A stretch of DNA of 27,768 nt from an uncultured Thermoplasmatales archaeon (GCA_964385215.1 CAYLOF010000001.1:1-27768); one strand, 5' to 3'; shown: positions 4,989 to 24,450, counted from the stretch's first letter. The notes: generated by a model from the letters alone, not told the origin. Numbers and translations: made by a program.

Positions 4989-5756
4989 ATGAAGGAAAAA
5001 ACAACATTGTGTGTCATACTGCTAATTTTCTTTAGTATGCTTTTAACAGGATGTATGAATAATGGTTCTCTATCTAACTGTGCTGTAATAGAGGGCAAAG
5101 GCACTTATTTAAAAATTCAAGATGCAATTGATGCCTCATCTGAGGGCGATACGATTCATGTATATGTGGGAACATATTATGAAAGCATCATACTAAACAA
5201 ATCAATCCATTTGATAGGCGATGGCAAGGATAAAACAATCATTGACTACCATAAAAACGATTCTGGAAATATTATTGCAATCAGCAAGAATCAATGCACA
5301 ATTAAAGGATTCACAATAACAAATAGTATGAAAAAATTTGGTTCAACATGGTTCATAAAAGGCATCGAAATCGATTCATCAAATAATTCAATATCTAATA
5401 ATTACATATCAAATACTAGCTATGGCATTCAAATTTTACCCAATTCAAGAAATAATATAATATCCAGAAACATGATATTTAATAACCAGAATGGTATTGA
5501 AATATGGCAATCATCATATAACAAAATCTTGTCAAATAATATATCATTAAATAGTCAATTTGGCGCCCTCATATTTGAAAAAGCAGAGTATAACGTGATT
5601 TCAAGTAACATTTTTTCAAATAATAATGAGGCAGTTCGACTTAAGGATGTACAATACAACACAATTAAACAAAATGTACTAATTAACAACACAAAAAACA
5701 TAGAACAATGCTGTGGAGCAAAGAATAATAACATTTACGAAAATACATATGAATAA
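4989..5756 (+). CDS. Lipoprotein with right-handed parallel beta-helix (NosD/CASH-like), short form
   Basis: Lipobox LTGC; IQDAIDASSEGDTIHVYVGTYYE cap; Asn/Ile coils; lacks the DGDG C-terminal cap. Confidence 0.85.
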   Translation: MKEKTTLCVILLIFFSMLLTGCMNNGSLSNCAVIEGKGTYLKIQDAIDASSEGDTIHVYVGTYYESIILNKSIHLIGDGKDKTIIDYHKNDSGNIIAISKNQCTIKGFTITNSMKKFGSTWFIKGIEIDSSNNSISNNYISNTSYGIQILPNSRNNIISRNMIFNNQNGIEIWQSSYNKILSNNISLNSQFGALIFEKAEYNVISSNIFSNNNEAVRLKDVQYNTIKQNVLINNTKNIEQCCGAKNNNIYENTYE

Positions 5757-6404: not shown

Positions 6405-8090
6405 ATGAGGTACATATTATCAAAAAAAGTGCTAATTTTAGCAATAACGACGCTGTTGATTCTAGTAACCATACCAAGTTTTTCAAGCGAAATAGAAGAA
6501 ACAAACAAAGTAGTTGATCTTTATGATGAGCCAGTAAGCAGTTCAACAGCAAAGGGGACTCATACAGTACTTGCTGAATATGGTACTTCTACTACATGTG
6601 GCTATTGTAAATATGCAAATCAAGCATTGAAAAATATTTACTGGGGCGGGGCACAAGATTTATGTGTAGTTACATTTGTCGCTCAAAATTCATATTCCTC
6701 ATCAAGATTCAGTGAATATAATCTTTATGGATACCCAACCGTCTGGTTTGATGGTGGATATCAGGTAGTTGTTGGAGCAGGTAGCACTTCTTCTGCACAA
6801 GCTAATTACAATTCAGCAATAGATCAATGTGAGGTTTATTCTGTATATGATGTTGATCTTCAATTATCAGCTAATTGGCTGGGAAGTGCAACTATGCAGA
6901 TTAGCGTTTCTGTTCAGAATAATGAAGCCTCGACATATGATGGACACATTCGAGTTTATGTTATAGAAAAAAATTCTACCTACTGGCATGATACAAATAA
7001 TCAACCATATGGTTTTGCGTTTCTGAACTATGCTTTTAATCAAGATATATCAATAGGAGTCGGTAATACATGGCAGAGCTCTACTGTTTGGAATGGAAAC
7101 GATTATGGTTTTGGATCAATAACTCAAGATAATACGATGGTTGTTGCAGCAGTATTTAATGATGATTGGCATCAGGGATATTCCTATCCGCCAAGCACTA
7201 ACCCATTTGATGCTTATTATGTTGATGAATCAACAATTGCAATTCCTGTTTTGGATAATAACCCGCCTGAAATATCTAACGTTTTATCAACTCCGCCGGT
7301 TCAAACGTCCGGAGATTATGTAAATACTTCTGCAGATGTTATTGATGATAGTGATGTAGATCAAGTTAAAGCAGTAATTACGTATCCCGACATGTCTTCT
7401 GCAAATGAAACAATGGCTGAAGATAGCGGCGATACCTATTATTTAAACGATATTTATTCAATGATTGGAACCTATAGTTATCATATTTGGGCAGAGGATG
7501 TTAATGGCAATCAGAACACATCGAGCACATATACATTTGAAATTGTTTCACCACACATAGCTGATTTATCGCAAAATTGGAATTTTATATCACTACCATT
7601 TAACCAGTCAATAGACAAGGCAGACATCATAGTAAACTACAGCGGTCTTGACCATGCCTGGGCTGATGCAGTAACAGCTGGCATTATAAACGACGTCATC
7701 TTTGGATGGAATCGTGCTACCCAAGGATACGAATTTGCAAATACCCTTGAACCAGGATATGGTTATTGGATATATGCTTATAATGCCTGTGAACTTTTGG
7801 CACCAGAAGTAAGTGCAATTTCTGATGGTTTTATAACAAATCTCGAGGTAAATTGGAATATCGTTGGTGCCCCAGACGATCAGTCAGTAGACAAAGCAGA
7901 TGTTCTTGTAAACTATGGCGGTACTGATTATAACTGGGCTGATGCAGTAACAGCTGGTTACGTAAATGATGTTGTATTTGGATGGAATGGTGCTACCCAA
8001 GGATACGAATTTTCAGATACTCTTATGCCCGGCTATAGTTATTGGATTTTCGCGTACTATGATTGTTCATTACTTCGCACCATTGTTTAA
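6405..8090 (+). CDS. Secreted protein: thioredoxin-like CxxC/Omp28-like N-terminal region, Ig-like domain, and two copies of a 92-aa C-terminal domain
   Basis: Signal peptide; VLAEYGTSTTCGYC (C65-C68) with GYPTVWFDG cis-Pro-type motif; beta-sandwich with HIRVYVIE; DNNPPEISNV Ig-like domain; two NWN..S/GxP...WADAVTAG...PGYxYWI units. Confidence 0.7.
   Translation: MRYILSKKVLILAITTLLILVTIPSFSSEIEETNKVVDLYDEPVSSSTAKGTHTVLAEYGTSTTCGYCKYANQALKNIYWGGAQDLCVVTFVAQNSYSSSRFSEYNLYGYPTVWFDGGYQVVVGAGSTSSAQANYNSAIDQCEVYSVYDVDLQLSANWLGSATMQISVSVQNNEASTYDGHIRVYVIEKNSTYWHDTNNQPYGFAFLNYAFNQDISIGVGNTWQSSTVWNGNDYGFGSITQDNTMVVAAVFNDDWHQGYSYPPSTNPFDAYYVDESTIAIPVLDNNPPEISNVLSTPPVQTSGDYVNTSADVIDDSDVDQVKAVITYPDMSSANETMAEDSGDTYYLNDIYSMIGTYSYHIWAEDVNGNQNTSSTYTFEIVSPHIADLSQNWNFISLPFNQSIDKADIIVNYSGLDHAWADAVTAGIINDVIFGWNRATQGYEFANTLEPGYGYWIYAYNACELLAPEVSAISDGFITNLEVNWNIVGAPDDQSVDKADVLVNYGGTDYNWADAVTAGYVNDVVFGWNGATQGYEFSDTLMPGYSYWIFAYYDCSLLRTIV
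7567..8066 (+). repeat. Intragenic tandem duplication with a 276-bp (92-codon) period
   Basis: CTGGGCTGATGCAGTAACAGCTGG identical at 7658 and 7934; TTTGGATGGAAT..GTGCTACCCAAGGATACGAATTT at 7701 and 7977; cagtca at 7605 and 7881. Confidence 0.9.
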
Positions 8091-8146
8091 TAAAACCTTT
8101 AATATTCCAACGCCATAATAGAGCAAATATTTGGATGTGAAATACA

Positions 8147-9406
8147 ATGATAGTAAAAAAAAGACCGAAGAGATATCATCAAACTAAAAAAATAACTACT
8201 ATCATTTGTATAATCAGTTTACTCGCTACAGTTCCATTACTTAATGCGTCAATGGTGTATACTCTTACATGTAGTACTGATCATTCAGAATACTATCCTG
8301 GGGAGACTGTACAGATATCAGGCTATCTAAAAAATGATGGAAATGGGGTAAGCGGTTCAGTTTGTGTCGAAGTTAAATATGGCGGAGAAACGGTATTTTC
8401 TATTTGCATTTCAACTTCATCCAGTGGTTACTATGGCACGTTTTATACTGCAAATGGTTTGGGATACTATTCTGTTAAAGCTGAGGCTCATGACTATAGT
8501 GTTACAGCATATGATTCATTCAAGGTAGTATCGACTTCTGTAATTGCCGATGCCAATGGACCATATTATGGAGTTGTTGATCAACCCATACAGTTTGATG
8601 GAGGTGTTGATGGAGGAAAATCTCCACATACATGGCTTTGGATTTTTGGGGATGGTACCAATACATCAAGTGACAAAGATCCCGTATATACCTATTATTC
8701 GATAGGCAATTATACTGTTAGTTTAACCGTTCGTGACGATGGCGGGCACGAAGGTGAAGATCAAACCACTGTAACTATAACAAATGAGCTGGTAGCTGAT
8801 GCAAATGGTCCTTATGAAGGTCCACCAAACATATCAATTAGTTTCAAAGGACTAGCGTATGGTGGTTATCCACCATATTCATATGAATGGGATTTTGGTG
8901 ATGGCGATAGTTCAAACGAGCAAAACCCTGATTATAGCTACAGTTTGCTTGGTTCATATACTGTCAATTTAACAGTTACTGATGGAAAGGACATTCAGAC
9001 AACAGACTCAACAACTGTAGCTGTTGCTGAGAACTATCCACCAAATAAACCAAGCACTCCAAATGGCCCAACAAATGGGAAAGCCAATACTGAATACACA
9101 TATTCAAGTGATACCACTGATCCAAATCAAAACCAGATTTACTATCTATGGGACTGGGGAGATGGAAATACGAGTGGATGGCTTGGTCCTTATGAATCTG
9201 GAGTTATCGTAAATGCTTCATATATTTGGAGTGAAAAAGGAGATTATGAAATTAAAGTAAAGACTAAAGACGTATACGAAGCAGAAAGCGAATGGTCAGA
9301 TCCACTGCCGATCAGCATGCCAAAAAACAGAAACACACCATTCTTGCGATTTTTGCAAAATCACCTATATATATTTCCAATCTTGAGACAACTACTTGAA
9401 TTGTAA
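8147..9406 (+). CDS. Secreted PKD-domain surface protein with an amphipathic C-terminal tail
   Basis: Signal peptide; MG2/Ig-like N-terminal domain; two ADANGPY...W.FGDG..S...P.Y.Y..G.YTV.LTV PKD domains; a PP.KP...GP...WDWGDG PKD-like domain; tail MPKNRNTPFLRFLQNHLYIFPILRQLLEL. Confidence 0.85.
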   Translation: MIVKKRPKRYHQTKKITTIICIISLLATVPLLNASMVYTLTCSTDHSEYYPGETVQISGYLKNDGNGVSGSVCVEVKYGGETVFSICISTSSSGYYGTFYTANGLGYYSVKAEAHDYSVTAYDSFKVVSTSVIADANGPYYGVVDQPIQFDGGVDGGKSPHTWLWIFGDGTNTSSDKDPVYTYYSIGNYTVSLTVRDDGGHEGEDQTTVTITNELVADANGPYEGPPNISISFKGLAYGGYPPYSYEWDFGDGDSSNEQNPDYSYSLLGSYTVNLTVTDGKDIQTTDSTTVAVAENYPPNKPSTPNGPTNGKANTEYTYSSDTTDPNQNQIYYLWDWGDGNTSGWLGPYESGVIVNASYIWSEKGDYEIKVKTKDVYEAESEWSDPLPISMPKNRNTPFLRFLQNHLYIFPILRQLLEL

Positions 9407-9519: not shown

Positions 9520-11577
9520 TTGTTAAATAAAAGACCCAAGGAATATTTAGTTGTTGGTATTGCAATTCTGTTGATTGGACTTATATTTGGATCAACTGTA
9601 AATGTGTTGAGTGTTGGAATGAAACAAACATTTAACACACCTGTCACCAATAATTTATTAAGTGGATATACAGACATTTCTGTTGAAGAAGCTTGGACTC
9701 TGTTAAATGACACGTCCAATGGTCTTCAACTACCTATAGATGTTAGAACCGATGTAGAATGGGCAGGCGAACACATAGACATCCCTTCTCCTGAAAATCC
9801 AAGACATCATTGTGTTTGCGAATGGAGCGATGAAAGCATATTACAAGAGTTTATATCATTATATAAAGGTGAGGAGATTATTCTTTACTGCCTGTCTGGC
9901 GGCAGGAGTACTGATGCGGCAAATATTCTTGTTGATAATGGATTTAATGGAATAATCTATAATATGCTTGGTGGAATAACTGCATGGAAGAATGCTGGTT
10001 ATCCTACTATAGCTAATCAGCCGCCAGGTGCACCCGATATAACGGGCCCCATAACTGGAAAGGCAGGTGAAGAACAGGAATATACGATAGTTTCAACAGA
10101 TATTGAAGGTGACGACATATATTACTACATCAATTGGAGTGATGGCACCAATACAACATATATTGGCCCGTATGAATCTGATGAAGAAGTAAGCATAAGT
10201 CATACTTGGGAAGAAAAGGGAACATATATTATTAAAGCGAAGGCATGGGATTATTACCAAGCTGAAGGTGAATGGGGAACACTTGAAGTTAGTATGCCTG
10301 AAGATATGAGATCTGATCTATTATCACAATTATTTGAAAGATTAACTCAAAAATATCCTATTTTAAATAAATTTTTTTTTCAACAAACTTCCGCGCATTT
10401 AATTTATGGAACTGCAACATACAGTGATGACAGCTCTGCCGCAGGAGCACTAGTGGATGTTGTTAGTTCATTAGGTACTCTACGTACCTCTGTTTATTCT
10501 GGTGGAAACTGGCAAGTTGATTGCGGTGATCCTGGTCCAAATTGGCCTGACAGTACAGTGTTCACTGTTTATGCTACAGGTTGCTGTGGTCATCGCGGTT
10601 GGTCAGGAGAATCTTCAGGTATTGTAAGCGGCGAGTATAACGATATGGGAAATATTGTTATGTATCCAAACAGTGATCCAAATGCCCCAAGCATCCCTAA
10701 CGGGCCAATTGCACTGCATATAGGTGATTCTGGTACATACACTACAAATGCAACAGACCCTAACGATCTTCACGAAATAAGATATAAATTTGATTGGGAT
10801 GCTGAAGGATCTCATGACTATAGCAATTTCACAGAATTTGTGGATAATGGTATGCCTGCCAGTAAATCCCATTTTTGGAATGTTCCTGGCACCTATGTAG
10901 TAAAGGCTCAGGCCGAAGATGAATATGGCTATGAAAGCGATTGGTCAGAAGGTTTTACCGTAATTGTTTATGATGATGACACTCCTCCAGAGGTACCTGT
11001 TATAGATGGTCCCACCTCTGGCAAAAAAGAAAATGAATACACATATAACATCACAACAACCGATCAAGATGGCGATGTTGTCAAATATTTTGTTGACTGG
11101 GGCGATGGTACGGATAGTGGATGGGTTGGCCCATATGATTCTGGTGAGAAGATAACAGCGGCTCATGACTGGACTGAAAGAGGAGCATATGAAATTACAG
11201 TAAAAGCAAAAGACGTATGTGAAATCGAAAGTAATTGGTCAGAACCATTAGTTATGAATATCATAGGGCCAGAAATTGAAATAGGTGTTATAACTGGTGG
11301 GGCGTTCAGAATAAACGCCGTTATAAAAAATATTGGGGGAGGAGAGGCTACAGACGTTAATTGGAACATTACATTAAATGGTGGTGCAATATTTTCAGGT
11401 AAAACAACATCAGGTTTGATTGAAAGTATTCCTCCAGGGAATCAGGTGACAATAAGTTCAGATGTGATAACAGGCATAGGTAAAACAGTGGTAACAGTGG
11501 ATGTAAGCATTTATGAAGGGAATTCAGATGCAAAAGTTGTAGATGCTACTGTGCTTTTGTTTTTCATTTTGTTGTAG
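9520..11577 (+). CDS. Secreted rhodanese-domain / PKD-like multidomain protein with a shared C-terminal domain; apparent fusion of two genes
   Basis: Signal peptide; rhodanese IDVR...YCLSGGRS (Cys124)...MLGGITAW; three PKD-like units; internal tail-like motif at 10294-10380; carboxypeptidase-regulatory-like IYGTATYSD unit; C-terminal domain 11269-11577. Confidence 0.8.
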   Translation: MLNKRPKEYLVVGIAILLIGLIFGSTVNVLSVGMKQTFNTPVTNNLLSGYTDISVEEAWTLLNDTSNGLQLPIDVRTDVEWAGEHIDIPSPENPRHHCVCEWSDESILQEFISLYKGEEIILYCLSGGRSTDAANILVDNGFNGIIYNMLGGITAWKNAGYPTIANQPPGAPDITGPITGKAGEEQEYTIVSTDIEGDDIYYYINWSDGTNTTYIGPYESDEEVSISHTWEEKGTYIIKAKAWDYYQAEGEWGTLEVSMPEDMRSDLLSQLFERLTQKYPILNKFFFQQTSAHLIYGTATYSDDSSAAGALVDVVSSLGTLRTSVYSGGNWQVDCGDPGPNWPDSTVFTVYATGCCGHRGWSGESSGIVSGEYNDMGNIVMYPNSDPNAPSIPNGPIALHIGDSGTYTTNATDPNDLHEIRYKFDWDAEGSHDYSNFTEFVDNGMPASKSHFWNVPGTYVVKAQAEDEYGYESDWSEGFTVIVYDDDTPPEVPVIDGPTSGKKENEYTYNITTTDQDGDVVKYFVDWGDGTDSGWVGPYDSGEKITAAHDWTERGAYEITVKAKDVCEIESNWSEPLVMNIIGPEIEIGVITGGAFRINAVIKNIGGGEATDVNWNITLNGGAIFSGKTTSGLIESIPPGNQVTISSDVITGIGKTVVTVDVSIYEGNSDAKVVDATVLLFFILL

Positions 11578-11607
11578 TATTTAATTGTAGTATTTAATAT
11601 ATAATGG

Positions 11608-11647
11608 TTTAAAAGGGTATTTTTGCCCCTAAACTCCCTGCTTTTTA
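11608..11647 (+). terminator. Possible weak hairpin plus T-run after 9520..11577
   Basis: tttaaaagggtatttttgcccctaaa forms an imperfect inverted repeat, followed by ctgcttttt. Confidence 0.3.
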
Positions 11648-11927
11648 ATGGAAAAACCACGTTCCTAATAATGTTCCATTTCTTCAATTAGAATCTGCAA
11701 ACATTTCTCATATTTATTTGAAAATAAAGAATTTATTGTTTAATTGTTTTTATATTTTAAAGAAGGAATTCTACCTGCTCTATAGTAAACGAAGTGGGAA
11801 GTGGCTGGTGGTAGACATACCTATTGACATTTTTCTTTACAATCAGAATCAACGAGGGATATACATGTTAGTCAGTTGGCACTTCAATAAATTAACTGAG
11901 CAGGTTACCAATAGAATTGATATGATT

Positions 11928-11956
11928 AAAAAATAAAAAAAGAGAAAAAGGTAGAT
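11928..11956 (-). terminator. Pyrimidine-rich/oligo-T terminator of the 1253-aa gene
   Basis: The minus strand reads ctacctttttctc followed by two long T-runs immediately after the stop at 11960. Confidence 0.55.
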
Positions 11957-11959
11957 GCT

Positions 11960-14900
11960 TTAAGCATCTATTGGTTCTGGTGATGTCCACTCAGGACTAT
12001 ATACGATAAGATCTGGATCTCCGTATAGGCACTGAACTGTTGTCACAGTAAGAGATGAAGAACCGTACATTGACGTTGGATCTTTTGTTGTAAAATCTCG
12101 CAGATGACGCCAAACTTCATTAGAATATGCTAGGCCTATTGAAACACCATCAACCATAACACTATCAAAGACGATATTGTCCATTAAATCTTCCTGTGGA
12201 GTTAATCCCGATCCTGCATTACCAAAGAAGAAAGATGCTCCGTGATCAAGATATACCATTGGTCCAAACGCATCACCGGTTGTACATGAAAGATAGAATA
12301 TTACATTGCTTCCTAGATTTTCAAATAATTCGTCAGCATAGTCATAGTGAATAATGTCATACAAGGATGGTGGTTCAGCATTATACCAACTTCTTCCATT
12401 GTTTCTGACAATCTGCCAATTATCATATTTTGAATAACCACGCCATGCATCCCACCATATTTGTTCTGGGTAGTTACAATGTTCTGTTTGGTCAAATTGT
12501 GCAGATGTTCCACTTCCACCAGTTCCATGTCCTGCATAATACATAGCACTTGCACCTTCATTTAAACGTTGAAGATGAGCATCCCATAAACAATGACCCT
12601 CGTAGTTTCTAAAATGAGATCCAAATGATTTCTTAACACTTCTACTTGAGTAAGCTGGTGTTGTCTCGTGATCGTTAGTTGTCCATTGACCACCATCTGC
12701 AAAGTTCATAAGTTGAGAAGTTGTGACATCACGATTCGGGTTTGCAAAGATTACTGCAGGATATAATATATTTCTTAATACCATTGCAGAAGTATACGCT
12801 GGTGTGATTCCTACAATGTGTCCTGCATATGAGTTATTGCCCAACATAACTGAGTGAGCCGGGATATATATGTCCTTTCGAGGTGCTACGAAACAGTATC
12901 CTTCTTTTCCAGATTGGTCAAGCCCTAGGCTATTGATATAATTGTATATTCCATCATGCAATTCTTCATTCCAATATCTTTTTGCATCCATTCCCAAAGG
13001 CGGAAGTCCTCCTGATGATCCTCCAGAGATTGCATATAAAAATGCGTCAAAGAGGGATTTTATAGACCATTCTCCTTCTCCAGCTAAGGGTTCATTGTGA
13101 TCTGGAAGATGTCCAGTTGATCTCGAACCATGATAATAATCTCCTGACCAAAGTCTCCAAGTTTCTATTCTGTCAGCCACACCTGCTGGATTTTCCGGTG
13201 CCTCTCCTATTCTAAGAACTGGAGAGCAATGATATGCAGCAAGCATTGCAGCAGGGGCAAAGTATCCATCTCCGGATTTAATTGAAGTTATGGTAATATA
13301 ATTTTCAGAGTTGTCATATCCTTTGACATAGTCAACAATATCTTGCATAGTCGTTAGATCTGCGTCAATGGTTGGTAAATCATTTTTCACATCCGCTCCA
13401 ATATTGCCTCTTTCAACAAATATGACTTTGCTAACGCCAAGCTGACTTAATGCATTAGATGTTGCAGATGGAATGCTGTCCGAATTGACGTACAATAATG
13501 GAGCATGTTCCTGCGATGCAATAACTGCTGCATTAGCTGCAGATATTGATGCATCCGCTCGCGAATGGGTTGCTCGTAATTCCGCCGTAATTGTATATGT
13601 CACATCTGAACCCTCAGAATTTCTTGGTACTACTATTGCTGTCCATTTCCCCTCATCAGGATGAAGTGCTTCTACTGAAAAATCAAGATGTGGTTCAGGA
13701 TTCCAAGTTCTCCATGGATTGTCCACTGGGTTTTCTAATCCATTCCATTCATGTATTGGATTTACAGGTCCATTCCATTGAGGAATATCAGGTGATATTA
13801 GATATCCTTCAGGATCAATAAGAAATACAATCAAATCAGATGGAGAGTCAGTTTGAGTTTTAACACTTAGTACAGATTCTGAATCATCAACATTGAGGGT
13901 ATACCGATCTCCCGCAAACTTTTTCACAGTGATATGGGACCAATCATCAGATGTTATATCAGAGCCTGTTCCCCAAATTCCAGGTTCTGCAATCGGATAA
14001 TAAACATCTATGCCATCTCCACTACCGTCATATGGAACGGGCCACCAATCCCCTCCAAAATTCATAAACTTGGGGAAATAACATGTTAAGAAATTCGCGT
14101 CGTCGTTGGCATGATATCCTGTTATATCATGTATTTCAACTTGAATTGCTCCCCATTTTTCATTCAAAAACATAGTATATTGGAGTTCAGTATTAAAAGC
14201 AGGATCGCTACTTTGAATATTTTCGACTTCCACTTCCCGTTTTAATGTTGTTGTTTTTTCAACTAACGTTGTAACACTATCTTCGAATTCACTGCCATCT
14301 ACTGCAATAACTGCAAGATCAGATGAGGTCCAACCTTGAGTTGCTATTTCAGCAGCTGCTGTTACTGGGTCAGAAGGTACTGTGTATTCAACTGCTACCT
14401 TTTCATGCAACGAAAGGTATGCATTCCAATCATCTATTAGATATTGTGTCGTGTCGTCAACCGTTCCTCTGTCAGCATCCACTCCAAACCAATTTGTAGG
14501 CGTATCATCGCCCTCATAGAAAATTGGGGCTAAATATCTTTGTCCACCTTCGTAATAGTTACAAGCGGGTACTGATGAAAGATAGGCATATTCGTCATTA
14601 TTGCTATTTGGATCATTAGTTATTATGAAACTTTTTGCAATAGGGGTGATATCAGGTTGAGGTATTGGAGCAGGGGGCGATGGCGCGCTTGATTCAACTG
14701 CAAAGTTCATCTTGTATGCACCAGATCCATATGTGTAGTATTTCCAATCAACCGGTTGAGGGATATCTGTGTACCCTGGGAAAATATCAATTTTAACTCG
14801 CCATTCTCCCGACTCGTCAGCAGGATAAAGCAATTCATCATCATAGTAGTAATCTTCTTCAAAAACCAATTCTCCACTAGGATTATACAACGAAATATCA

Positions 14901-15721
14901 AAGTCGGATAGGTAGGCAAGTTTTTTCATTTCTAAAGTAAAGTGGATGCCTTGGCCAGAATTAATATTGAATTTATACCAATCTTGCTCATCATTCATAT
15001 CAACGTATCCGTAATACTCACCAGGGCTTATTGTAGTGGCACCACTAAACGAGTTACCAGCATCACTTCCGGTGCCAGCATCATTTTGACTAGATAAAGA
15101 AACATCAAAAGTATACTCGCCATCACCTGAATCGCTACCTGGAACTATTGCCATATAATAATATCCACTATATTCTGCTACGTATGTAATTGATTCTGTA
15201 GTACTTGGTCCAGTAGAAGTGGCCATTTCATCTCCGGCATCATTATGAAGATAAAGATCATAGTTGTCAGTTGCAAAAAATGACATTTCGATAGTTTGAC
15301 CTTCACACACAGAGAAGAAATACCAATCTTCGTCACCACTAGATGTAATCTTCCCAGTTCTGCCTCTGCCAGGAGTATTATCAATCATTTCACCTGGGTA
15401 TAAAGCAGTAGCTCGAGAGATCTTATCTCCTGCATCCCTTCGGGTTCCTGCATCATCAAAGTCATCGCCATCAAGATTTAGCGGCTCCTCTGAATAAGGA
15501 TCTTGAATGATATATTTATTGTCAAGCCAAAATGGACCTAAATCTATAGTATCTTTGGTAGGTTCAGCAATTGGGTCACGGAAGATTGTTGCATCTTCAT
15601 TGACAAGCAAACTTTTTTCCTTTTCCACTCCTATCGAACCTGCAGGAACAAGAAACATTGTTCCAAGCAGCAGTATTGTTAAAACAACAGCGTCTATTTT
15701 TATGTTTTTTCTATATTTCAA
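11960..15721 (-). CDS. Large secreted clan CD (gingipain/C25-like) cysteine peptidase with N-terminal PPC-like repeats and CWB2-like repeats
   Basis: TTG start with AGGGGG RBS; signal peptide; two DAG...DAG..S.AT.I/LxPGE...D.D.Y.F PPC-like units; CWB2-like segments; catalytic-type YYAGHG (His1065) and YLSCTTG (Cys1146); terminal YGDP motif as in C25 proteins. Confidence 0.7.
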   Translation of the reverse strand: MKYRKNIKIDAVVLTILLLGTMFLVPAGSIGVEKEKSLLVNEDATIFRDPIAEPTKDTIDLGPFWLDNKYIIQDPYSEEPLNLDGDDFDDAGTRRDAGDKISRATALYPGEMIDNTPGRGRTGKITSSGDEDWYFFSVCEGQTIEMSFFATDNYDLYLHNDAGDEMATSTGPSTTESITYVAEYSGYYYMAIVPGSDSGDGEYTFDVSLSSQNDAGTGSDAGNSFSGATTISPGEYYGYVDMNDEQDWYKFNINSGQGIHFTLEMKKLAYLSDFDISLYNPSGELVFEEDYYYDDELLYPADESGEWRVKIDIFPGYTDIPQPVDWKYYTYGSGAYKMNFAVESSAPSPPAPIPQPDITPIAKSFIITNDPNSNNDEYAYLSSVPACNYYEGGQRYLAPIFYEGDDTPTNWFGVDADRGTVDDTTQYLIDDWNAYLSLHEKVAVEYTVPSDPVTAAAEIATQGWTSSDLAVIAVDGSEFEDSVTTLVEKTTTLKREVEVENIQSSDPAFNTELQYTMFLNEKWGAIQVEIHDITGYHANDDANFLTCYFPKFMNFGGDWWPVPYDGSGDGIDVYYPIAEPGIWGTGSDITSDDWSHITVKKFAGDRYTLNVDDSESVLSVKTQTDSPSDLIVFLIDPEGYLISPDIPQWNGPVNPIHEWNGLENPVDNPWRTWNPEPHLDFSVEALHPDEGKWTAIVVPRNSEGSDVTYTITAELRATHSRADASISAANAAVIASQEHAPLLYVNSDSIPSATSNALSQLGVSKVIFVERGNIGADVKNDLPTIDADLTTMQDIVDYVKGYDNSENYITITSIKSGDGYFAPAAMLAAYHCSPVLRIGEAPENPAGVADRIETWRLWSGDYYHGSRSTGHLPDHNEPLAGEGEWSIKSLFDAFLYAISGGSSGGLPPLGMDAKRYWNEELHDGIYNYINSLGLDQSGKEGYCFVAPRKDIYIPAHSVMLGNNSYAGHIVGITPAYTSAMVLRNILYPAVIFANPNRDVTTSQLMNFADGGQWTTNDHETTPAYSSRSVKKSFGSHFRNYEGHCLWDAHLQRLNEGASAMYYAGHGTGGSGTSAQFDQTEHCNYPEQIWWDAWRGYSKYDNWQIVRNNGRSWYNAEPPSLYDIIHYDYADELFENLGSNVIFYLSCTTGDAFGPMVYLDHGASFFFGNAGSGLTPQEDLMDNIVFDSVMVDGVSIGLAYSNEVWRHLRDFTTKDPTSMYGSSSLTVTTVQCLYGDPDLIVYSPEWTSPEPIDA

Positions 15722-15773
15722 TTTATTCTGCCCCCTAATCTGATATATATATTAAATATATATGATACTTGAT

Positions 15774-15795
15774 GTATAAATAATTTACCTTTATC
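15774..15795 (-). promoter_or_regulatory. BRE/TATA-like promoter for the 1253-aa gene
   Basis: The minus strand reads gataaaggtaaattaTTTATAc about 55 nt upstream of the start. Confidence 0.4.
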
Positions 15796-16041
15796 ATTTT
15801 ATCTAGATCATTCTTTAATGTTTGATAGTAATTAATATTCAAGCTTATGTTATCATGCTATCTTAGGTATCTTAGGAAAATACTCCCAATGTTATCCAAA
15901 TTTAATACTAATACCACTATTATGTAACATTTACTACATACTATACCTTTTCACTACACATTTTCCATTTATATAATATTGTAATAGTGCAAAATGTATT
16001 AACACTCTAGAGATGGACAACATGGCTCTCTGTTTTTAACA

Positions 16042-16117
16042 AAATTCAAGCAAATTCAAGCAAAACATTACGAAACATTTATACATTACCTAATATATAT
16101 ACAATAGGGGAAACCTT
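16042..16117 (+). promoter_or_regulatory. Promoter of 16118 with upstream 10-bp phased repeats, BRE/TATA and GGGGA RBS
   Basis: aaattcaagc twice (16042, 16052), aaaacattac, cgaaacaTTTATA (16071-16083), taGGGGAaaccttATG. Confidence 0.6.
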
Positions 16118-16218
16118 ATGAATAAATCAAAAAAGGCAAAAATATTTATTGAGGCAGCTTTAGTGATTGTTGTTACATTGGCTTTACTTATGCCAGCTTC
16201 AGCAGTAGTCACTAACAA
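16071..16218 (+). repeat. 5' constant block, copy 1 (promoter + RBS + signal peptide); copy 2 at 17841..17988
   Basis: 148-nt ungapped alignment, 8 mismatches by manual count, offset 1770. Confidence 0.95.
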
Positions 16219-17713
16219 TGTAGACAATGCCTATGGTTTTGAGAGAGTTGATAACCAAGGCAATTTAAAGAAAAAAACAATAGCCAATACTTTTGCAGGA
16301 GATGACATTTGGGCGACACCATTCCAAGGTGATGATTATATACCAGCAATTACTAAAGATTTAGATGGTAATGTTGTAATATCCTGGACAAATGAACAGA
16401 GTTTCAGTGAATCATATTTTGGAATAAGTTATTCTGATGATCCATCTGATGCGCAAACATGGTATGATAATGGATTGGTTCTAACACTCTCTGGAAATGA
16501 TTATGGTTTTGATACTGCACTAATCGTAGGACCTGAATCTGATGATTTCAAGGGTCTTGTTGGTGTCTATTTCTCTTTAGCTGATGATTTAGCTGGCTAT
16601 TATGAAATTGAAGACATCACTGGAGATTTTGGAGATTGGCCAATTTATTCCTGGACTGATTTTGGACAAGATTCTTATTACTCATGTATTGCGGATGGTG
16701 GTTTTGTTCAGGGAGGATATTATCCTGACATGTTTGGACCAATGATATTTCATATATGTTTAAATGATCTATGTGGAACCATACCTGAATGTCCAGTTTT
16801 TGGCCATATTGATATTCGCAATGATGGTAGTGGCGTATTTTTCTATGATTGCCAGGAATTTGAACAGACAGCACCAGCCGCAGACCCTGATTACTTTATG
16901 GTTGTAGATAGAGAGATATATCATACAGTAGTCTATAATCATGAAACCAATGACGTGATATGGAAAAAAGTCGACCCAACTGTTGAACATGATTATGAAT
17001 ACACTCCATTCCAGAGTACCATTGGAACAGGAACAAACCCTGCTATTGCAGGCTATGGCACAAATGTAGCTGTTGTTTATACAGATGAAGGACAGGTAAA
17101 ATGTGCACATAGTAGTGATGATGGAGAAACATGGGACACTTCACCAGTAGCTTCAGGAGGATTTTCAGACATATGTGCAGTTGGAACAACGCTTTATGTT
17201 ACATACATCTCTAGTGGAAATTTATTTAAAGTTACATCAGAGGATGGTGGAGCAACCTGGAGTCAAGCAGAGCAAATAAACGATGTCGATGGAACTGTTG
17301 TTGCAATGGAAAATTCTGTTGATATACATGAAGCAGGAATTGTATGGGTAGATGAAAGAGGCGAAGATTGGGATATCTATTATGAAGGACTAGTGAGCAT
17401 ACCACAACCAAAAATTGAAATAGATCAGATAGCCGGAGGTATCGGTGTCAGTGCAGTAGTTACAAACAATGGAGATGTCGATGCAACAGATGTAGAGTGG
17501 AGCATCACATTAGATGGTACAGTATTCCTTGGCGCTGAGAAAACTGACACAATTTCAAGCATTGCAGTTGGTGAATCCGTCCCAATTAAATCAGGATTCC
17601 CATTAGGCTTTGGTCCTATAGATATAACAATAACTGCACAAAGTGCTGAAGGACCATCTGATACAGAAACAGCAAGTGGAAAGTTACTTCTATTCTTTAT
17701 AACTGGATTATAA
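16118..17713 (+). CDS. Secreted BNR/Asp-box (sialidase-like propeller) protein with shared C-terminal domain, paralogue A
   Basis: Signal peptide ending PASA; Asp-boxes SSDDGETW and SEDGGATW; IVWVDER..DWDIYY; C-terminal domain 17408-17713 ending LLLFFITGL. Confidence 0.8.
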   Translation: MNKSKKAKIFIEAALVIVVTLALLMPASAVVTNNVDNAYGFERVDNQGNLKKKTIANTFAGDDIWATPFQGDDYIPAITKDLDGNVVISWTNEQSFSESYFGISYSDDPSDAQTWYDNGLVLTLSGNDYGFDTALIVGPESDDFKGLVGVYFSLADDLAGYYEIEDITGDFGDWPIYSWTDFGQDSYYSCIADGGFVQGGYYPDMFGPMIFHICLNDLCGTIPECPVFGHIDIRNDGSGVFFYDCQEFEQTAPAADPDYFMVVDREIYHTVVYNHETNDVIWKKVDPTVEHDYEYTPFQSTIGTGTNPAIAGYGTNVAVVYTDEGQVKCAHSSDDGETWDTSPVASGGFSDICAVGTTLYVTYISSGNLFKVTSEDGGATWSQAEQINDVDGTVVAMENSVDIHEAGIVWVDERGEDWDIYYEGLVSIPQPKIEIDQIAGGIGVSAVVTNNGDVDATDVEWSITLDGTVFLGAEKTDTISSIAVGESVPIKSGFPLGFGPIDITITAQSAEGPSDTETASGKLLLFFITGL

Positions 17714-17751
17714 TTAGAATAGATAAAACTACCCACCTCTCTTCTTTTTTT
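17491..17751 (+). repeat. 3' constant block, copy 1 (distal C-terminal domain + 3' UTR + terminator); copy 2 at 19294..19554
   Basis: 261-nt ungapped alignment, 7 mismatches by manual count, all transitions, offset 1803. Confidence 0.95.
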
Positions 17752-17760
17752 TTAATTTTT
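17731..17760 (+). terminator. Oligo-T terminator of paralogue A
   Basis: acccacctctcttc followed by T9 and aattttt. Confidence 0.6.
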
Positions 17761-17840
17761 AATTAAACATACAAATATTTCTTTATATTGTGGCTTGCTT
17801 TACCTCTTAACTATTAATTGTATAAAAATTATGGGTAAAG

Positions 17841-17887
17841 CGAAACATTTATACATTACTTAATATATATAAGGTAGGGGAAACCTT
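17841..17887 (+). promoter_or_regulatory. Promoter and RBS of paralogue B, near-identical to that of paralogue A
   Basis: cgaaacaTTTATAcattac...taGGGGAaaccttATG. Confidence 0.65.
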
Positions 17888-19516
17888 ATGAATAAAGCAA
17901 AAAAGGCAAAAATATTTATTGAGGCAGCTTTAGTGGTTGTTGTTACACTGGCTTTAATTATGCCAGCTTCAGCAGTAGTCACTAACAAAACAACGGATAA
18001 TTCAACATCCATTAAAATAGTTCCAACGAATACACCGATTTCAAATGCAGGATCATTAGCTGCAGGCAATATTTTAATAACGGCAGACAATCCTGATGAA
18101 GATGATCAAAACCCAAAGATACTAAAGGACGGTGGAGGAAACATCCTTGTTGTTTATGAAAAAGTTAAGGACACCTTCACCATCGCCAGTGAGTTAGTTT
18201 TTACAGACGATGATGGAGCTACATGGTATTTGGCATATGATTTTGATTCCACAAATTGGGACTCTGGTTCCGGTGAGCTTATATCAGGGGACATATCATA
18301 CAATCCAGCTATTGATAAAACTTTCTGGTGTGCAATAGATGCAATTGGCGATATGTACAATCTAAGAATGACTTGGTTGGAGGGAAATATTGTCAATGCT
18401 GGAGACGTTACGATATATGGTGTTTCTGGTACAGGTGCAACAGAACATTATGAGACATCATGTACTTGTGTGTCTGAATGGGCAATCACTCCATATATTT
18501 GCGATGAACCTGATTATGATCTTTATCGTTGCCCTGGCCTAGGATATTGGGATATCGATTTTGAGCATCCAGATATGGGTGGATTTTATTATGATGGAGG
18601 ATCAATCCTTGAAACCACTCCCGCAAGCAATATCGAGGCTGAAACTGGTGTAGAACGCATGTACATGGTAATGCAAGTTGATGATAAGATTGCTTTCAAG
18701 GCAACTACTACTGATCCGGAACTTCTTCAAACCAATGGCGGCGGACCTGGAGGAATGGACCAATATGCAGATATCGAATGCTGGCCATGGCAAAATTGGA
18801 TTGCAACAGAAAACGCAGAAGATCCTGATGTTTCAGGTGATGCTGGAAAAGTCTGTGTTGTCTATTCACAGGACGGAATGGTAAAATGTGCATATAGTAG
18901 CGATGTTGTAAAGGAATATGAAGAAGAAATTGAATTCCAAGTATCTGAGATAGATGCGGGGAGCTATCCAACTGTTTATATGTCTGGAAATGACGTATAC
19001 GTCGGATACGTAGAGAGTGGAAACCTTTACTTCATAAAATCTACTGACGGTGGAGCAACATGGGGCACTCCTGTACAAAAGAACGAAATAGATGGAACTG
19101 TTGTTGGACAATATGGTACTTGTCACATCGATTCTGTTGGTATTGTTTGGACTGACTCTAGAAACGGAAACTATGATGTTTATTATGATGTAACTCAATA
19201 CATCCCACAACCAAAAATAGACATTGAACAAATATCCGGTGGTTTAGGAGTTAGCGCAGTTGTAACAAACAATGGAGATGCTGATGCTACAAATGTAGAG
19301 TGGAGTATCACATTAGATGGTACAGTATTTCTTGGCGCTGAGAAAACTGACACAATTTCAAGCATTGCAGTTGGCGAATCCGTCCCAATTAAATCAGGAT
19401 TCCCATTAGGTTTTGGCCCTATAGATGTAACAATAACTGCACAAAGTGCTGAAGGACCATCTGATACAGAAACAGCAAGTGGAAAGTTACTTCTATTCTT
19501 TATAACTGGATTATGA
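17888..19516 (+). CDS. Secreted BNR/Asp-box propeller protein with shared C-terminal domain, paralogue B
   Basis: Signal peptide nearly identical to paralogue A; Asp-boxes TDDDGATW and STDGGATW; IVWTDSRNGNYDVYY; C-terminal domain 19211-19516. Confidence 0.8.
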   Translation: MNKAKKAKIFIEAALVVVVTLALIMPASAVVTNKTTDNSTSIKIVPTNTPISNAGSLAAGNILITADNPDEDDQNPKILKDGGGNILVVYEKVKDTFTIASELVFTDDDGATWYLAYDFDSTNWDSGSGELISGDISYNPAIDKTFWCAIDAIGDMYNLRMTWLEGNIVNAGDVTIYGVSGTGATEHYETSCTCVSEWAITPYICDEPDYDLYRCPGLGYWDIDFEHPDMGGFYYDGGSILETTPASNIEAETGVERMYMVMQVDDKIAFKATTTDPELLQTNGGGPGGMDQYADIECWPWQNWIATENAEDPDVSGDAGKVCVVYSQDGMVKCAYSSDVVKEYEEEIEFQVSEIDAGSYPTVYMSGNDVYVGYVESGNLYFIKSTDGGATWGTPVQKNEIDGTVVGQYGTCHIDSVGIVWTDSRNGNYDVYYDVTQYIPQPKIDIEQISGGLGVSAVVTNNGDADATNVEWSITLDGTVFLGAEKTDTISSIAVGESVPIKSGFPLGFGPIDVTITAQSAEGPSDTETASGKLLLFFITGL

Positions 19517-19532
19517 TTAGAATAGATAAAAC

Positions 19533-19565
19533 TACCCACCTCTCTTCTTTTTTTATTTTCTTTTT
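19533..19565 (+). terminator. Oligo-T terminator of paralogue B
   Basis: Same acccacctctcttc + T-run as paralogue A. Confidence 0.6.
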
Positions 19566-19742
19566 TAATAAATTTATTTAATAAAATTCTGTTATTATTT
19601 TATATTGCTTATATTAAACAAAACATTTAAGTAATGGAAAATAGATATCTTCCATAACATTGGAGGAAAAAAGTTATAGATTGTAAAGTGAAGAAAAATA
19701 TGAGTATTTGTTAGATACATACAGACAAAATTGGTGAAAAAT

Positions 19743-21320
19743 ATGAAGAAAAAAAATATTGGAATATATGCAATAACATTGATTATTGCAGGGCTGATGA
19801 TTGCAGTTTCTGCTACTGCTATAGTGCAGAAACCAAACGAGGAAAAAAGATACATTAACTGGAATAGAACTGAGGCTTGTATATCTGGAGTAGAAATGAC
19901 AGAAATAATGCCTGCAAAAGAACTCAAACATGCACCAGGACAACTTAGTGCTGATCCATTGTATAATGGCGCCTATCCAGATGTTGCAAGTGGAGGATCT
20001 AACATTTGTCTCGGTTTTGATAGTTTAGAGACTCCAGGTACAGCATTTACATTCTCACAAGACGGCGGTGCATCCTGGCATGAAAGTGCATATGGTTGGG
20101 AATTAGGAGAATCAATGTGGCCCTCAGTTGACTTTTCAGCAGGTAATCGATTCTATGGAACAGTTTCCCCAGATTGGTCAACAAATGGTTATGTGACTCA
20201 ATGTGATTTTGTGGATATAACTGACCCAGAAACATGGGTTGCTGGTACTTGGGACTGGTCATCATATGATATGATGGAGTTTGAAGGAATATCTATTGCA
20301 GCAATGGATGATAGCCTAGAAGAATGGAGATGGGGATTCATCACAATGTCGGGCTACAATGGATATAACGACCCCGCTGCAGATGGTTGTCCATATGTGA
20401 TGTATGCAACTGATGATGGCTATGCTACAATTAGCTGGCTAATAGATAGTGACTCAGGAGATATCCTTGGTGGCTGTGAAAATGCAGCTAGTGAAATAGA
20501 TCCAGTTCGCTACCATAATTATGCAATATGGGAACGATATAATGATGACGAGGAAAGTTACAACTTAGAATTCCGTAAGGATGATTCTGCTGCAGAAGCA
20601 GGTGAAAGCGGATTTGTTACAGCAGGAGAACTAGTAACCTCTGAAAATAGCCGTTATCCTGATATTAGCGCCTATGATAGCAATGTCATTATTGTTTCAG
20701 AAGCAGATGGAGATATAGTCTGCTATTATTCTAATAATGGACTGAACAATTTCGATGCAATTTTTGTAGCATCCACAACAGATGACGAAACATTTCCGAG
20801 GATAACCCATACAGGAGAAGATGAAGCAATTTGCACCTTTATTAAAAATGAAAATATCTACTACTCCATGACAGATGATGGAGGAGCTACATGGGACGAA
20901 CCTACAATGATTAATGATGTAGAAGGACAAGTAACAGAAGATTACCTTTCATCAGGCGTCTGTGAATTGGGTGCATGTTTCGGCGGCAATGATGATATAG
21001 TTTATTATGGGGCAGTAGGGGCCAAACCTATTATTACAATTGAAGGGTTTACTGGCGGTCTTGGTGCAACTGCAACCATAAAGAACGTAGGGACTGCTGA
21101 TGCAACAAATGTGGAATGCTCCATAACTGTGACAGGCGGAATTTTAGGGATGGTAAACAAAACAGTCACTGAAACAATATCAGGTATTGCAGTAGACGAA
21201 GAGGTAACCATAAGTACAGGAATCTTTTTGGGACTTGGTGCAATAGAAATAACCGCTACCGCAGGATCGTCAAGTGATTCCACAACAGGTACACAGATAC
21301 TGATCTATACAATGCTATAA
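19743..21320 (+). CDS. Secreted BNR/Asp-box propeller protein with divergent shared C-terminal domain, paralogue C
   Basis: GGTGA RBS before ATG 19743 (ORF track starts at GTG 19731); signal peptide ending SATA; SQDGGASW and TDDGGATW Asp-boxes; C-terminal domain 21027-21320 ending QILIYTML. Confidence 0.8.
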   Translation: MKKKNIGIYAITLIIAGLMIAVSATAIVQKPNEEKRYINWNRTEACISGVEMTEIMPAKELKHAPGQLSADPLYNGAYPDVASGGSNICLGFDSLETPGTAFTFSQDGGASWHESAYGWELGESMWPSVDFSAGNRFYGTVSPDWSTNGYVTQCDFVDITDPETWVAGTWDWSSYDMMEFEGISIAAMDDSLEEWRWGFITMSGYNGYNDPAADGCPYVMYATDDGYATISWLIDSDSGDILGGCENAASEIDPVRYHNYAIWERYNDDEESYNLEFRKDDSAAEAGESGFVTAGELVTSENSRYPDISAYDSNVIIVSEADGDIVCYYSNNGLNNFDAIFVASTTDDETFPRITHTGEDEAICTFIKNENIYYSMTDDGGATWDEPTMINDVEGQVTEDYLSSGVCELGACFGGNDDIVYYGAVGAKPIITIEGFTGGLGATATIKNVGTADATNVECSITVTGGILGMVNKTVTETISGIAVDEEVTISTGIFLGLGAIEITATAGSSSDSTTGTQILIYTML

Positions 21321-23220: not shown

Positions 23221-24450
23221 CTATTTTGATAAACTACCCCACGTTTTCTTTAGCATGAAGGCAAGAACCAACGCACATAGGGCGATACTCAGTCCGAACC
23301 CATATGTTTTACCCACTTTGGCATTTGTTTTGAAGAAACCTAAAGGATACAAATCTATGCTTTCCCCATTAGGTAATATGCCCTCATACGGCACGTCTCC
23401 AATACCGTCACCATCTGCATCTGTTCCGTTATAATCGCTCCAATAATTGCCAATTTTGTTTTTATACCATTGATTGTCAAAAGTATCATATGCACTTTTA
23501 TTGTTTAATGAAAAGTTATTTAGATAAAGCGTATTAAAATAAGATTTACAGCATATCCAACAGCCAAACATTTTGCTCGAATGTATTGCATTTTCAAAGA
23601 CCATGTTGTCATTGGAGTGTATAATGTAAATCCCATAATCGTTATTTCCTACAAAATTTTCGGTAACAGTATTATTTGACGCATAGTTTAAACGTATCCC
23701 AAAGATGCTATTAGAAACACTAGTATTTATGATTGAACAAGTTGAAGAGTACCCAAGCACAATGCCTTGATCTGCATTTGATATGGTTATATCTTGTATT
23801 GTAAGGTTAGTACAGTTTGATATGATTACTTGGCCAGGCTCATCAGGTGAAATTGTTTTGTTAACCATGTTTTTGTAGAAGTAAAGCTTTTTTCCATTTA
23901 CTGTGTTGTTTTTGATAATATGGGTATTCCAACCAGTAATGTTGCCTACGATGTTTATTCCGTCATTTATAAATGTATTATTCTCAAAAACATTGTTTGA
24001 TGAATGGTATAAATAGATGCCCCAATCGCTGTTGTTTTCAATGATATTATCTGTTATTGCATTGTTGTCCGATTCAATATTTATGCCAGAATAACCCTTG
24101 CCCTTAGAATTTCTTACAGTAAATCTCTTAAAAGTACATCCATCTGCTGTTATAGACACAGTTTCGCCACTTTCATTGTATTCTATTATTGTAGATGATT
24201 TTTCTTCCCCGATGAGATGTACTGTTTTATATAGTCTAATGCTCTCACGATAGATACCATTAGAAACATATATGATGTCACCTTGTTGTGCATTATTTAT
24301 GGCGTCCTGTATGGACAGAAATTTTCCATCTGTCTCTCCTCCTACGTATATGGCATTTTTATCTGCAGCCAAACAATTATTAGCGGGAATTAAAAAGAGC
24401 ATAAGTAACAAAAGTGTAATTGATATTTCAATGAATTTTTTGTTATTCAT
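23221..24450 (-). CDS. Secreted beta-helix (NosD/CASH-like) protein with a PGF-CTERM-like membrane anchor
   Basis: Signal peptide; SIQDAINNAQQGDIIYVSNGIYRE cap; coils; GNYWSDY.GTDADGDGIGDVPY; tail KTYGF + hydrophobic helix + KK. Confidence 0.85.
   Translation of the reverse strand: MNNKKFIEISITLLLLMLFLIPANNCLAADKNAIYVGGETDGKFLSIQDAINNAQQGDIIYVSNGIYRESIRLYKTVHLIGEEKSSTIIEYNESGETVSITADGCTFKRFTVRNSKGKGYSGINIESDNNAITDNIIENNSDWGIYLYHSSNNVFENNTFINDGINIVGNITGWNTHIIKNNTVNGKKLYFYKNMVNKTISPDEPGQVIISNCTNLTIQDITISNADQGIVLGYSSTCSIINTSVSNSIFGIRLNYASNNTVTENFVGNNDYGIYIIHSNDNMVFENAIHSSKMFGCWICCKSYFNTLYLNNFSLNNKSAYDTFDNQWYKNKIGNYWSDYNGTDADGDGIGDVPYEGILPNGESIDLYPLGFFKTNAKVGKTYGFGLSIALCALVLAFMLKKTWGSLSK

Follow-up and report, generated by a model that had tools for sequence, protein, structure and literature searches.

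A CARDB-like C-terminal domain shared by secreted proteins of Thermoplasmatota and its possible role at the cell surface

The C-terminal domains of proteins exported by the type IX secretion system (T9SS) of Bacteroidota are self-contained Ig-like sandwiches of about 80-100 amino acids, which stand last on signal-peptide-bearing hydrolases and adhesins, including C25 peptidases (Por_Secre_tail/TIGR04183, with PorU as the sortase). The same layout, i.e., a predicted Ig-like sandwich at the C-terminus of cargo with a signal peptide, was found in a stretch of 27,768 nucleotides from an uncultured Thermoplasmatales archaeon (GCA_964385215.1, CAYLOF010000001.1:1-27768), which was analyzed as a whole and is called the window in the following. 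Four of its genes, named A to D, encode secreted proteins that end in copies of one domain, abbreviated here as CTD (C-terminal domain). The CTD family is single and terminal in nearly all proteins analyzed, and we lean towards the view that it serves as a tag for holding exoproteins at the cell surface.

The differences from T9SS cargo are that the hosts are archaea, that their C25 peptidases look like cargo, and that no dedicated machinery or sortase was identified. CARDB domains (PF07705; solved structures 2L0D and 2KUT) share the fold class and the central motif x-V-x-N-x-G-x-x-x-A-x-x-V with the CTD, but canonical CARDB domains are tandem or internal, whereas the CTD is single and terminal. 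The tripartite signals PGF-CTERM (archaeosortase), PEF-CTERM and LPXTG (sortase) are likewise C-terminal on secreted proteins and have a hydrophobic stretch near the end. They are, however, only about 25-35 amino acids long and consist of a motif, a transmembrane helix of about 15-20 residues and a basic cluster, whereas the CTD is a folded domain of 100 amino acids. Dockerins of cellulosomes and SLH/CWB2 modules are comparable in that one lineage-specific, usually terminal module is found on many exoenzymes per genome. Dockerins are calcium-binding and helical and SLH/CWB2 modules are alpha/beta, in contrast to the all-beta, Ig-like CTD, to which their folds are unrelated and for which no cohesin-like partner was identified. 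Subunits that are joined by donor strands (chaperone-usher pili, type V pilins, archaeal threads, bundling pili) have an incomplete Ig fold, and the groove left open in it takes up a strand of the next subunit, whereas the monomer model of the CTD is complete with its own last strand, with the reservation that a monomer prediction can self-complement.

Domain copies in the window and their sequence family

Gene A (9520-11577, on the plus strand like the other three) encodes 685 amino acids with a signal peptide, a rhodanese domain, a PKD domain, an internal helix motif, two further PKD domains and the CTD. Pfam recognized Rhodanese (4e-11), PKD_4 (5e-11) and, weakly, CARDB at amino acids 594-659. 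The CTD of A (11269-11577) ends in VLLFFILL, directly followed by the stop codon. It was found by alignment, BLASTP and the family hidden Markov model (HMM), of which it matches positions 7-117 of 118, and the match ends one residue before the stop. Gene B (16118-17713, 531 amino acids), which is also called on the JGI contig Ga0307422_1001846, consists of a signal peptide, a weakly BNR-like passenger and a CTD (17408-17713) ending in KLLLFFITGL. Gene C (17888-19516, 542 amino acids) is a tandem paralogue of B, and its CTD (19211-19516) is 93% identical to the B copy. Gene D (19731-21320), a paralogue of B and C, has 529 amino acids if read from the TTG at 19731; the ATG at 19743 is the more likely start and fits a JGI call of 525 amino acids. 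Its CTD (21027-21320) ends in QILIYTML and represents a subtype with the pattern VTGGILGxxN ... Q-I-I-I-F/Y-T.

Each of the four intervals comprises the last about 100 codons plus the stop codon of its own open reading frame (ORF). The MAFFT alignment of the four CTDs spans about 100 residues with 25 invariant columns, and the copies of B, C and D are 42, 41 and 36% identical to that of A. In pairwise BLASTP the E value was 3e-18 between A and B and 5e-10 between A and D, and thus the similarity is not due to chance. ORFs, alignment and BLASTP therefore confirmed the four copies that had originally been predicted at these positions. The prediction had also spoken of four secreted proteins with unrelated passengers. 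All four N-termini are indeed of the Sec type (a K/R-rich start followed by a hydrophobic core), and the passengers are diverse throughout the family, but B, C and D are paralogues from one family with weak BNR/Asp-box signatures. The window thus holds two independent passenger architectures, rhodanese plus PKD (A) and the B/C/D family, and four independent fusions of the CTD in the window were rejected.

The consensus of 153 relatives, with which the originally proposed consensus agrees, reads P-x-L-E-I-x-x-I-x-G-G-[FIL]-[GK]-V-x-A-x-I-K-N-x-G-x-x-x-A-T-N-V-x-W-x-I-x-L-x-G-G in its first part and L-G-F-G-x-x-x-I-T-V-T-A-x-(C-D-E-G)-x-S ... G-x-V-L-L-F-F-[IV]-x-x in its second part. The G-x-G is invariant (153/153), and near-invariance was seen for the N, for several G and for the W, which is present in 145 of the 153 sequences and is the sole conserved aromatic residue. 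A single Cys was found in 73 of the 153 CTDs in a C-[DA]-E-G loop that immediately precedes the last strand (columns 130-133, F-G loop). The window copies have S/I-x-E-G at this position or lack the loop. This Cys might bind a metal, form a disulfide or be a site of modification.

An exhaustive profile search over 1.84 billion cluster representatives gave 2,993 matches at E ≤ 1e-3, 1,638 at E ≤ 1e-10 and 40 at E ≤ 1e-30. Word-indexed homologue searches returned only short fragments (13 and 44 matches); the CTD was C-terminal in all of the 13, one of which came from a metagenome-assembled genome (MAG) of Thermoplasmata. The position was analyzed in 158 proteins, i.e., the best 150 profile matches and the earlier matches, and in 156 of them the CTD ended 0-9 residues from the C-terminus. 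Both exceptions (P0014 and P0030) are giant tandem-repeat proteins. Their repeats lack the family-specific first strand (the N-terminal A strand) and the hydrophobic tail, and mostly match only the core of the profile (about positions 16-66), while a small number of repeats in P0030 extend to positions 94-103. A six-frame HMM scan of 75 sources (816 kb of DNA), which was independent of gene calls, revealed 119 copies, each in an ORF of its own, and a stop codon was present at most 10 residues past the model end in 114 of the 117 evaluable copies. The three remaining cases were a masked stretch, a frameshifted gene and one apparent fusion. The lone copy that appears to be internal is found at 6566-8302 (minus strand) of locus L047, where profile positions 3-74 match amino acids 60-132 of a 579-amino-acid ORF, a tail-like RVIGPLVIKI lies just downstream, and more than 400 further residues follow. 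A fusion, the loss of a stop codon or a mistake in the assembly could explain this copy.

Signal-peptide-like N-termini were present in 85 of the 158 proteins, and most of the others are fragments from contig edges. The claim that the CTD is always the last domain was thus essentially correct, and neither frequent internal matches nor CTDs on proteins without signal peptides, the two outcomes named beforehand as contrary to it, were seen. The passengers of the 85 full-length CTD proteins span 43 Pfam families. They include PKD (31 members), BNR, PQQ and other propellers, beta-helices, FG-GAP, MAM, Cleaved_Adhesin and several DUFs, and subtilisins were found among the fragments. One protein of 138 amino acids (P0077) consists of a signal peptide and the CTD alone.

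Two scans of GTDB with one genome per species were seeded with core motifs from sub-alignments, e.g., [VI][DNT][WY][ST]I[TNS][LF][DE]GG and AT[ND]V[EQD]W[STE]I[TNI]. They gave 37 and 34 loci, and 70 of these 71 came from Thermoplasmatota-type MAGs, which are labeled Thermoplasmatota, Thermoplasmata, Thermoplasmatales, "Euryarchaeota archaeon UBA..." or "uncultured archaeon" and take in SM1-50 and three closed chromosomes. With the full-length protein B as query no relatives were found in the GTDB species genomes, and no cultured organism was among the CTD matches. In these scans the family is thus almost confined to Thermoplasmatota. Only two non-archaeal labels were encountered, L062 (CAYUZU010000122.1, 1,387 bp, from a Planctomycetales bin) and P0178 (partial, on a 2 kb contig labeled "Proteobacteria bacterium"), both of which are most likely misbinned short contigs.

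One closed genome of 2.3 Mb has at least 10 CTD copies in the stretches that were fetched. The motif around or after the last strand is genome-specific, and paralogues of one genome tend to share the tail type. In CP070724 (L006, L017, L023, L051, L058) 8 of 10 copies end in the F-I-K-V-N-P-G-G-G-I type, while the copies of CP070836 (L043) end in L-L-L-F-F-I-T-G-L and those of CAZUBH01 (L054, L060, L066) in the amphipathic I-I-L-S-K-V-T-I-Q. Concerted evolution of the paralogues or co-evolution with a lineage-specific partner could have led to this pattern.

Predicted fold and the hydrophobic end

The CARDB model of Pfam aligned with about positions 19-81 (of 101) to the window copies and gave 13.6, 22.1, 20.5 and 14.8 bits, all below the gathering threshold of 22.7. 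When 74 isolated CTDs were searched, 64 matched CARDB at E ≤ 1 (best 3.7e-8), and weak matches were also found to CBM_2 (4/74, best E 0.006) and NPCBM_assoc (6/74, best E 0.024). The kinship with CARDB is thus at the level of the superfamily, and the four window copies are not formal CARDB members. The closest PDB sequences were only the two CARDB entries 2KUT and 2L0D, at E of about 0.1, and no close solved relative was found.

The structure of copy B (105 residues) was predicted with AlphaFold2. With an alignment of 74 sequences the predicted local distance difference test (pLDDT) was 97.1 and the predicted template modeling score was 0.87, and all five models reached a pLDDT of at least 94. 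Strands were predicted at residues 7-13, 19-24, 30-45, 48-56, 61-65, 70-82, 88-99 and 101-103, so that the model, with 7-8 strands, has the Ig-like beta-sandwich fold of CARDB. Foldseek, run on a first model from 17 sequences, retrieved Ig-like sandwiches with TM-scores of 0.6-0.7 (E ≥ 1e-3), among them CARDB 2L0D with 0.63. Judged from these models, the CTD is a divergent, self-contained CARDB/Ig-like beta-sandwich of about 100 residues, and its original classification as CARDB/Ig-like was borne out by Pfam, Foldseek and the matches of the 74 isolated domains. Three features come in addition to CARDB, namely the N-terminal P-x-L-E-I-x-x-I-x-G-G strand, the invariant G-x-G that starts strand F, and a long F-G hairpin, the second half of which is the hydrophobic V-L-L-F-F-I end. 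The fold and the superfamily (CARDB/E-set) are known; the family is set apart by these three features, by its obligatory place at the C-terminus and, in the scans made here, by being nearly restricted to Thermoplasmatota. Neither the four proteins nor the 74 isolated CTDs matched a dedicated model in the Pfam and NCBIfam copies searched, in accordance with the earlier statement that no characterized function is known for the domain, and literature searches on CARDB in Thermoplasmatota, on CARDB and archaeal sorting and on the closed genomes gave no description of it.

The original prediction had compared the domain with the T9SS C-terminal domain and with donor-strand polymerization modules, and the hydrophobic end could accordingly have been a special element, e.g., a donor strand or a short anchor. 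In the model from 74 sequences the tail (L97-T103) forms the second half of the long F-G hairpin, with pLDDT values of about 96-98, and from the register of the hairpin it would adjoin the invariant L-G-F-G that opens strand F. Covariation was analyzed as mutual information with average product correction; mean-field direct coupling analysis on 218 sequences was too noisy for contacts. The tail columns 98 and 103 had the strongest mutual information with strands C/C' (39, 41, 44, 47), with strand F (70, 76) and with the residue after the GG (17). This fits packing within the domain, with the measure being inflated by subfamily structure.

The length of the hydrophobic run was determined for 297 non-redundant CTDs. 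The strictly hydrophobic run was at most 10 residues long (median 6), and in 93 of the 297 (about 31%) it comprised just 1-4 residues. In 13 of the 297, the last six residues included at least two K/R. Some tails are an amphipathic strand (IILSKVTIQ), and others carry an added polar extension (F-I-K-V-N-P-G-G-G-I). A transmembrane or membrane-inserted tail was rejected because the run is too short, and tripartite sorting signals (PGF-CTERM, PEF-CTERM, LPXTG) were rejected because of the short run, the rarity of a basic tail and the lack of any match to NCBIfam sorting-signal models. On these two points the prediction, which had described the end as too short for a transmembrane helix, devoid of a basic tail and different from PGF/PEF-CTERM or LPxTG-type signals, was right. 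The idea of a special element was not supported, since the AlphaFold2 model, the covariation and the 31% of CTDs with short runs all point to an integral strand. Most simply, the hydrophobic end would be the last strand of a closed sandwich and not a separate signal. This corrects an attractive idea that is probably wrong, namely that the end is a signal rather than an ordinary buried strand. The monomer model, proposed beforehand as a check, came out as a self-contained CARDB-like domain in which the last strand is predicted to complete its own fold and would be buried, which is the third outcome named beforehand as contrary to the prediction. As the T9SS domain is also a self-contained Ig-like sandwich, this outcome leaves room for a role in sorting.

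Exchangeable gene ends and neighboring genes

Genes B and C are mosaics. A block at the 5' end of B (16071-16218, plus strand), which comprises the upstream region and the signal peptide, has 94.6% DNA identity to 17841-17988 of C in blastn. A block at the 3' end (17398-17751, plus strand), which comprises the CTD and 38 bp past the stop codon, has 92.7% identity to 19201-19554 of C. The passengers in between have only 3-46% protein identity when compared segment by segment. This pattern speaks for gene conversion or for an exchange of cassettes at the two ends, and thus both ends behave as exchangeable or homogenized cassettes.

Different C-terminal ends were also found on homologous passengers. 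The window encodes a C25 peptidase of the gingipain family (24617-26515, plus strand; Peptidase_C25 3e-58) with a signal peptide and a propeptide and without a CTD. Homologues of this peptidase have a CTD in four loci (L005, L006, L033, L034), a helix tail in L039 and neither elsewhere. Likewise, PKD proteins end in a CTD, in the helix tail or in a transmembrane helix followed by KKK. The helix tail is a second C-terminal element that stands behind PKD domains, with the helix-like pattern ...F-L-x-[RF]-[FL]-x-x-[FH]-P-x-x-F-P-I-L-R-x-L-L-G-x, and it forms the end of at least 10 ORFs from related genomes (loci L004, L008, L016, L017, L023, L027, L039, L056, L058). On PKD proteins it also takes the form ...F-L-x-R-F-P-N-A-F-P-I-L-R-x-L-L-G-x. 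The PKD protein of the window (ORF 8147-9406) ends in it as well (9332-9403, NTPFLRFLQNHLYIFPILRQLLEL). A diverged copy is internal in gene A (10315-10380, amino acids 266-287), so that A has the appearance of two joined genes, one for rhodanese-PKD-helix tail and one for PKD-PKD-CTD.

The window has a low G+C content (31-40%) and is densely filled with genes for secreted proteins. Three of them are of the NosD/beta-helix type (3946-4911 and 4989-5756, both plus strand, and 23221-24450, minus strand). The last of these ends in a transmembrane helix and a basic tail (...GFGLSIALCALVLAFMLKKTWGSLSK), i.e., a classical membrane anchor unlike the CTD. Between A and B, a secreted protein of 1,253 amino acids is encoded on the minus strand (11960-15721). 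Pfam recognized two PPC domains in it (4.5e-06), the CWB2 wall-binding region of C. difficile Cwp6 is matched weakly (5J72, E 9e-4), and the C-terminal part contains the motifs HGTGGSG and LSCTTGD, which are reminiscent of the His/Cys dyad of clan CD. No homologue of it was found in the other loci fetched.

Possible function and alternative explanations

We consider it somewhat more probable than the opposite that the CTD is a lineage-specific C-terminal tag for the non-covalent targeting or retention of exoproteins at the cell surface. The proteins usually consist of a Sec signal peptide, a variable passenger and a single terminal CTD, and the tag is shared by PKD arrays, propellers, C25 and subtilisin peptidases, beta-helices and adhesin-like domains. 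The CTD would dock, without a covalent bond, to a component of the envelope or to a partner protein, and exported enzymes and binding proteins would thereby be held at the surface. It would be one of several interchangeable C-terminal anchors, besides the transmembrane helix with a basic tail and the FPILRxLLG helix tail. Structure alone gives no reason why a self-contained Ig-like domain should stand singly and last in 97-99% of the cases and on dozens of kinds of passenger, which argues for a targeting module. The terminal rule, the alternative endings on homologous passengers, the cassettes of B and C and the shared tail types together point to an address or anchoring module. Our confidence is high for the identity and the fold of the domain and moderate for its function. 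The homology, the fold class, the terminal rule, the variety of passengers, the restriction to one lineage and the multiple copies follow from the data, whereas surface retention, the nature of any partner and the fate of the CTD, cleaved or kept, are inferred.

Several observations weigh against this interpretation. An all-against-all clustering of 543 neighboring ORFs revealed no recurrent neighbor other than cargo, and no partner or receptor was identified. The terminal position could partly reflect spread by recombination at 3' ends rather than a need for a free C-terminus. The position statistics come from the best 150 profile matches and the motif-seeded loci, and the weaker matches (about 2,800) may hold internal CARDB domains. 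In the AlphaFold2 model with 17 sequences (pLDDT 80.8) LLFFITGL was a coil of low confidence, and the monomer prediction of the tail would be compatible with strand swapping between molecules.

A more specific proposal, that the CTD is the address tag of an undescribed sorting or surface-display system almost exclusive to Thermoplasmatota, is possible, though rather doubtful. The folded CTD together with genome-specific ends such as F-I-K-V-N-P-G-G-G-I would then be recognized by a receptor or a processing enzyme, which would dock or covalently attach many exoproteins per genome (peptidases, propellers, PKD adhesins) to the envelope. A cleaved sorting signal like that of T9SS, with a PorU-like C25 sortase that removes the CTD and links the passenger covalently to the surface, seems unlikely. 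The obligatory C-terminal Ig-like sandwich and the hydrolase and adhesin cargo, including C25 peptidases, are common to both, the genome-specific tails resemble lineage-specific sorting motifs, and the C25 peptidase of the window, which has no CTD itself, matches the PorU model weakly (E 6e-17, 60.6 bits). The cut-off of that model is 420 bits, however, and a match of this kind is expected from any C25 peptidase. The homologues with a CTD or a helix tail are themselves cargo, so that the case for this peptidase as a dedicated sortase is weakened. The models of T9SS C-terminal domains (Por_Secre_tail/TIGR04183, TIGR04131) matched none of the four whole proteins (E ≤ 0.1 for Pfam, E ≤ 0.01 for NCBIfam), and neither these nor sorting-signal models matched the 74 isolated CTDs even at E ≤ 1. 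In addition, no enzyme recurs among the neighboring ORFs, and only a Pro-containing linker, with no conserved cleavage motif, precedes the CTD. We know of no outer membrane in these archaea, which is the structure that T9SS serves.

Beta-sandwich modules at the C-termini of enzymes are commonly carbohydrate-binding modules (CBMs), and the CTD might bind a ligand or substrate and tether enzymes to detrital particles or polymers instead of the cell. The few weak matches to CBM_2 and NPCBM_assoc and the many passengers that are hydrolases or binding domains would agree with this, but CBMs are found at either end, internally and in multiples, whereas the CTD is single and terminal. The conserved W lies in V-x-W-x-I-x-L of strand C on the face of the core residues and is thus probably buried, and P0077 has no passenger to tether. 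We regard a CBM-like role as improbable, too. A module in which the last strand enters the sandwich of a neighbor and surface dimers or polymers arise would be in line with four consecutive, strictly hydrophobic positions (hmmalign columns 99-102, i.e., columns 145-148 of the consensus table), which imply burial on two faces, and with the unplaced tail of the shallow-alignment model. In an AlphaFold2 model of a monomer, a strand that molecules exchange in vivo can be folded back into its own domain. The deep-alignment model nevertheless has a full set of strands, including the tail in its own hairpin, and no sign of a vacant groove. The tail covaries with the A-B loop and with strands C, C' and F, where covariation does not separate contacts within and between molecules. 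The passengers are enzymes and propellers and not pilin-like, and the frequent short runs and the amphipathic tails also argue against strand exchange, which we judge highly improbable. Hardly probable at all is an ordinary structural CARDB spacer that is terminal merely as a by-product of ancestry and recombination. The CTD is a self-contained sandwich of the CARDB superfamily, and recombination at gene ends is visible in B and C. However, the canonical tandem CARDB of P0014 and P0030 match mainly the core of the profile, the rule of a single terminal copy is kept over 43 passenger families and about 1,600 clusters, and the CTD alternates with other C-terminal anchors on homologous passengers.

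Thermoplasmatota of anoxic sediments (MBG-D/Thermoprofundales-like) are considered to use extracellular peptidases for the degradation of detrital protein (PMC6461988). With at least 1,600 clusters at the C-termini of secreted peptidases, propellers and adhesins, the family would offer a handle on how such exoenzymes are retained at the cell, and the surface proteome of Thermoplasmatota lineages could be predicted from it by a simple rule. The CTD is a domain family missed by the current Pfam and NCBIfam models and a testable candidate for a hitherto undescribed means of anchoring or sorting in archaea. Interest in it would rise considerably if a receptor or a processing enzyme were found. If the proposed sorting or surface-display system exists, the CTD would correspond in function, on the archaeal side, to the T9SS C-terminal domain or to dockerin.

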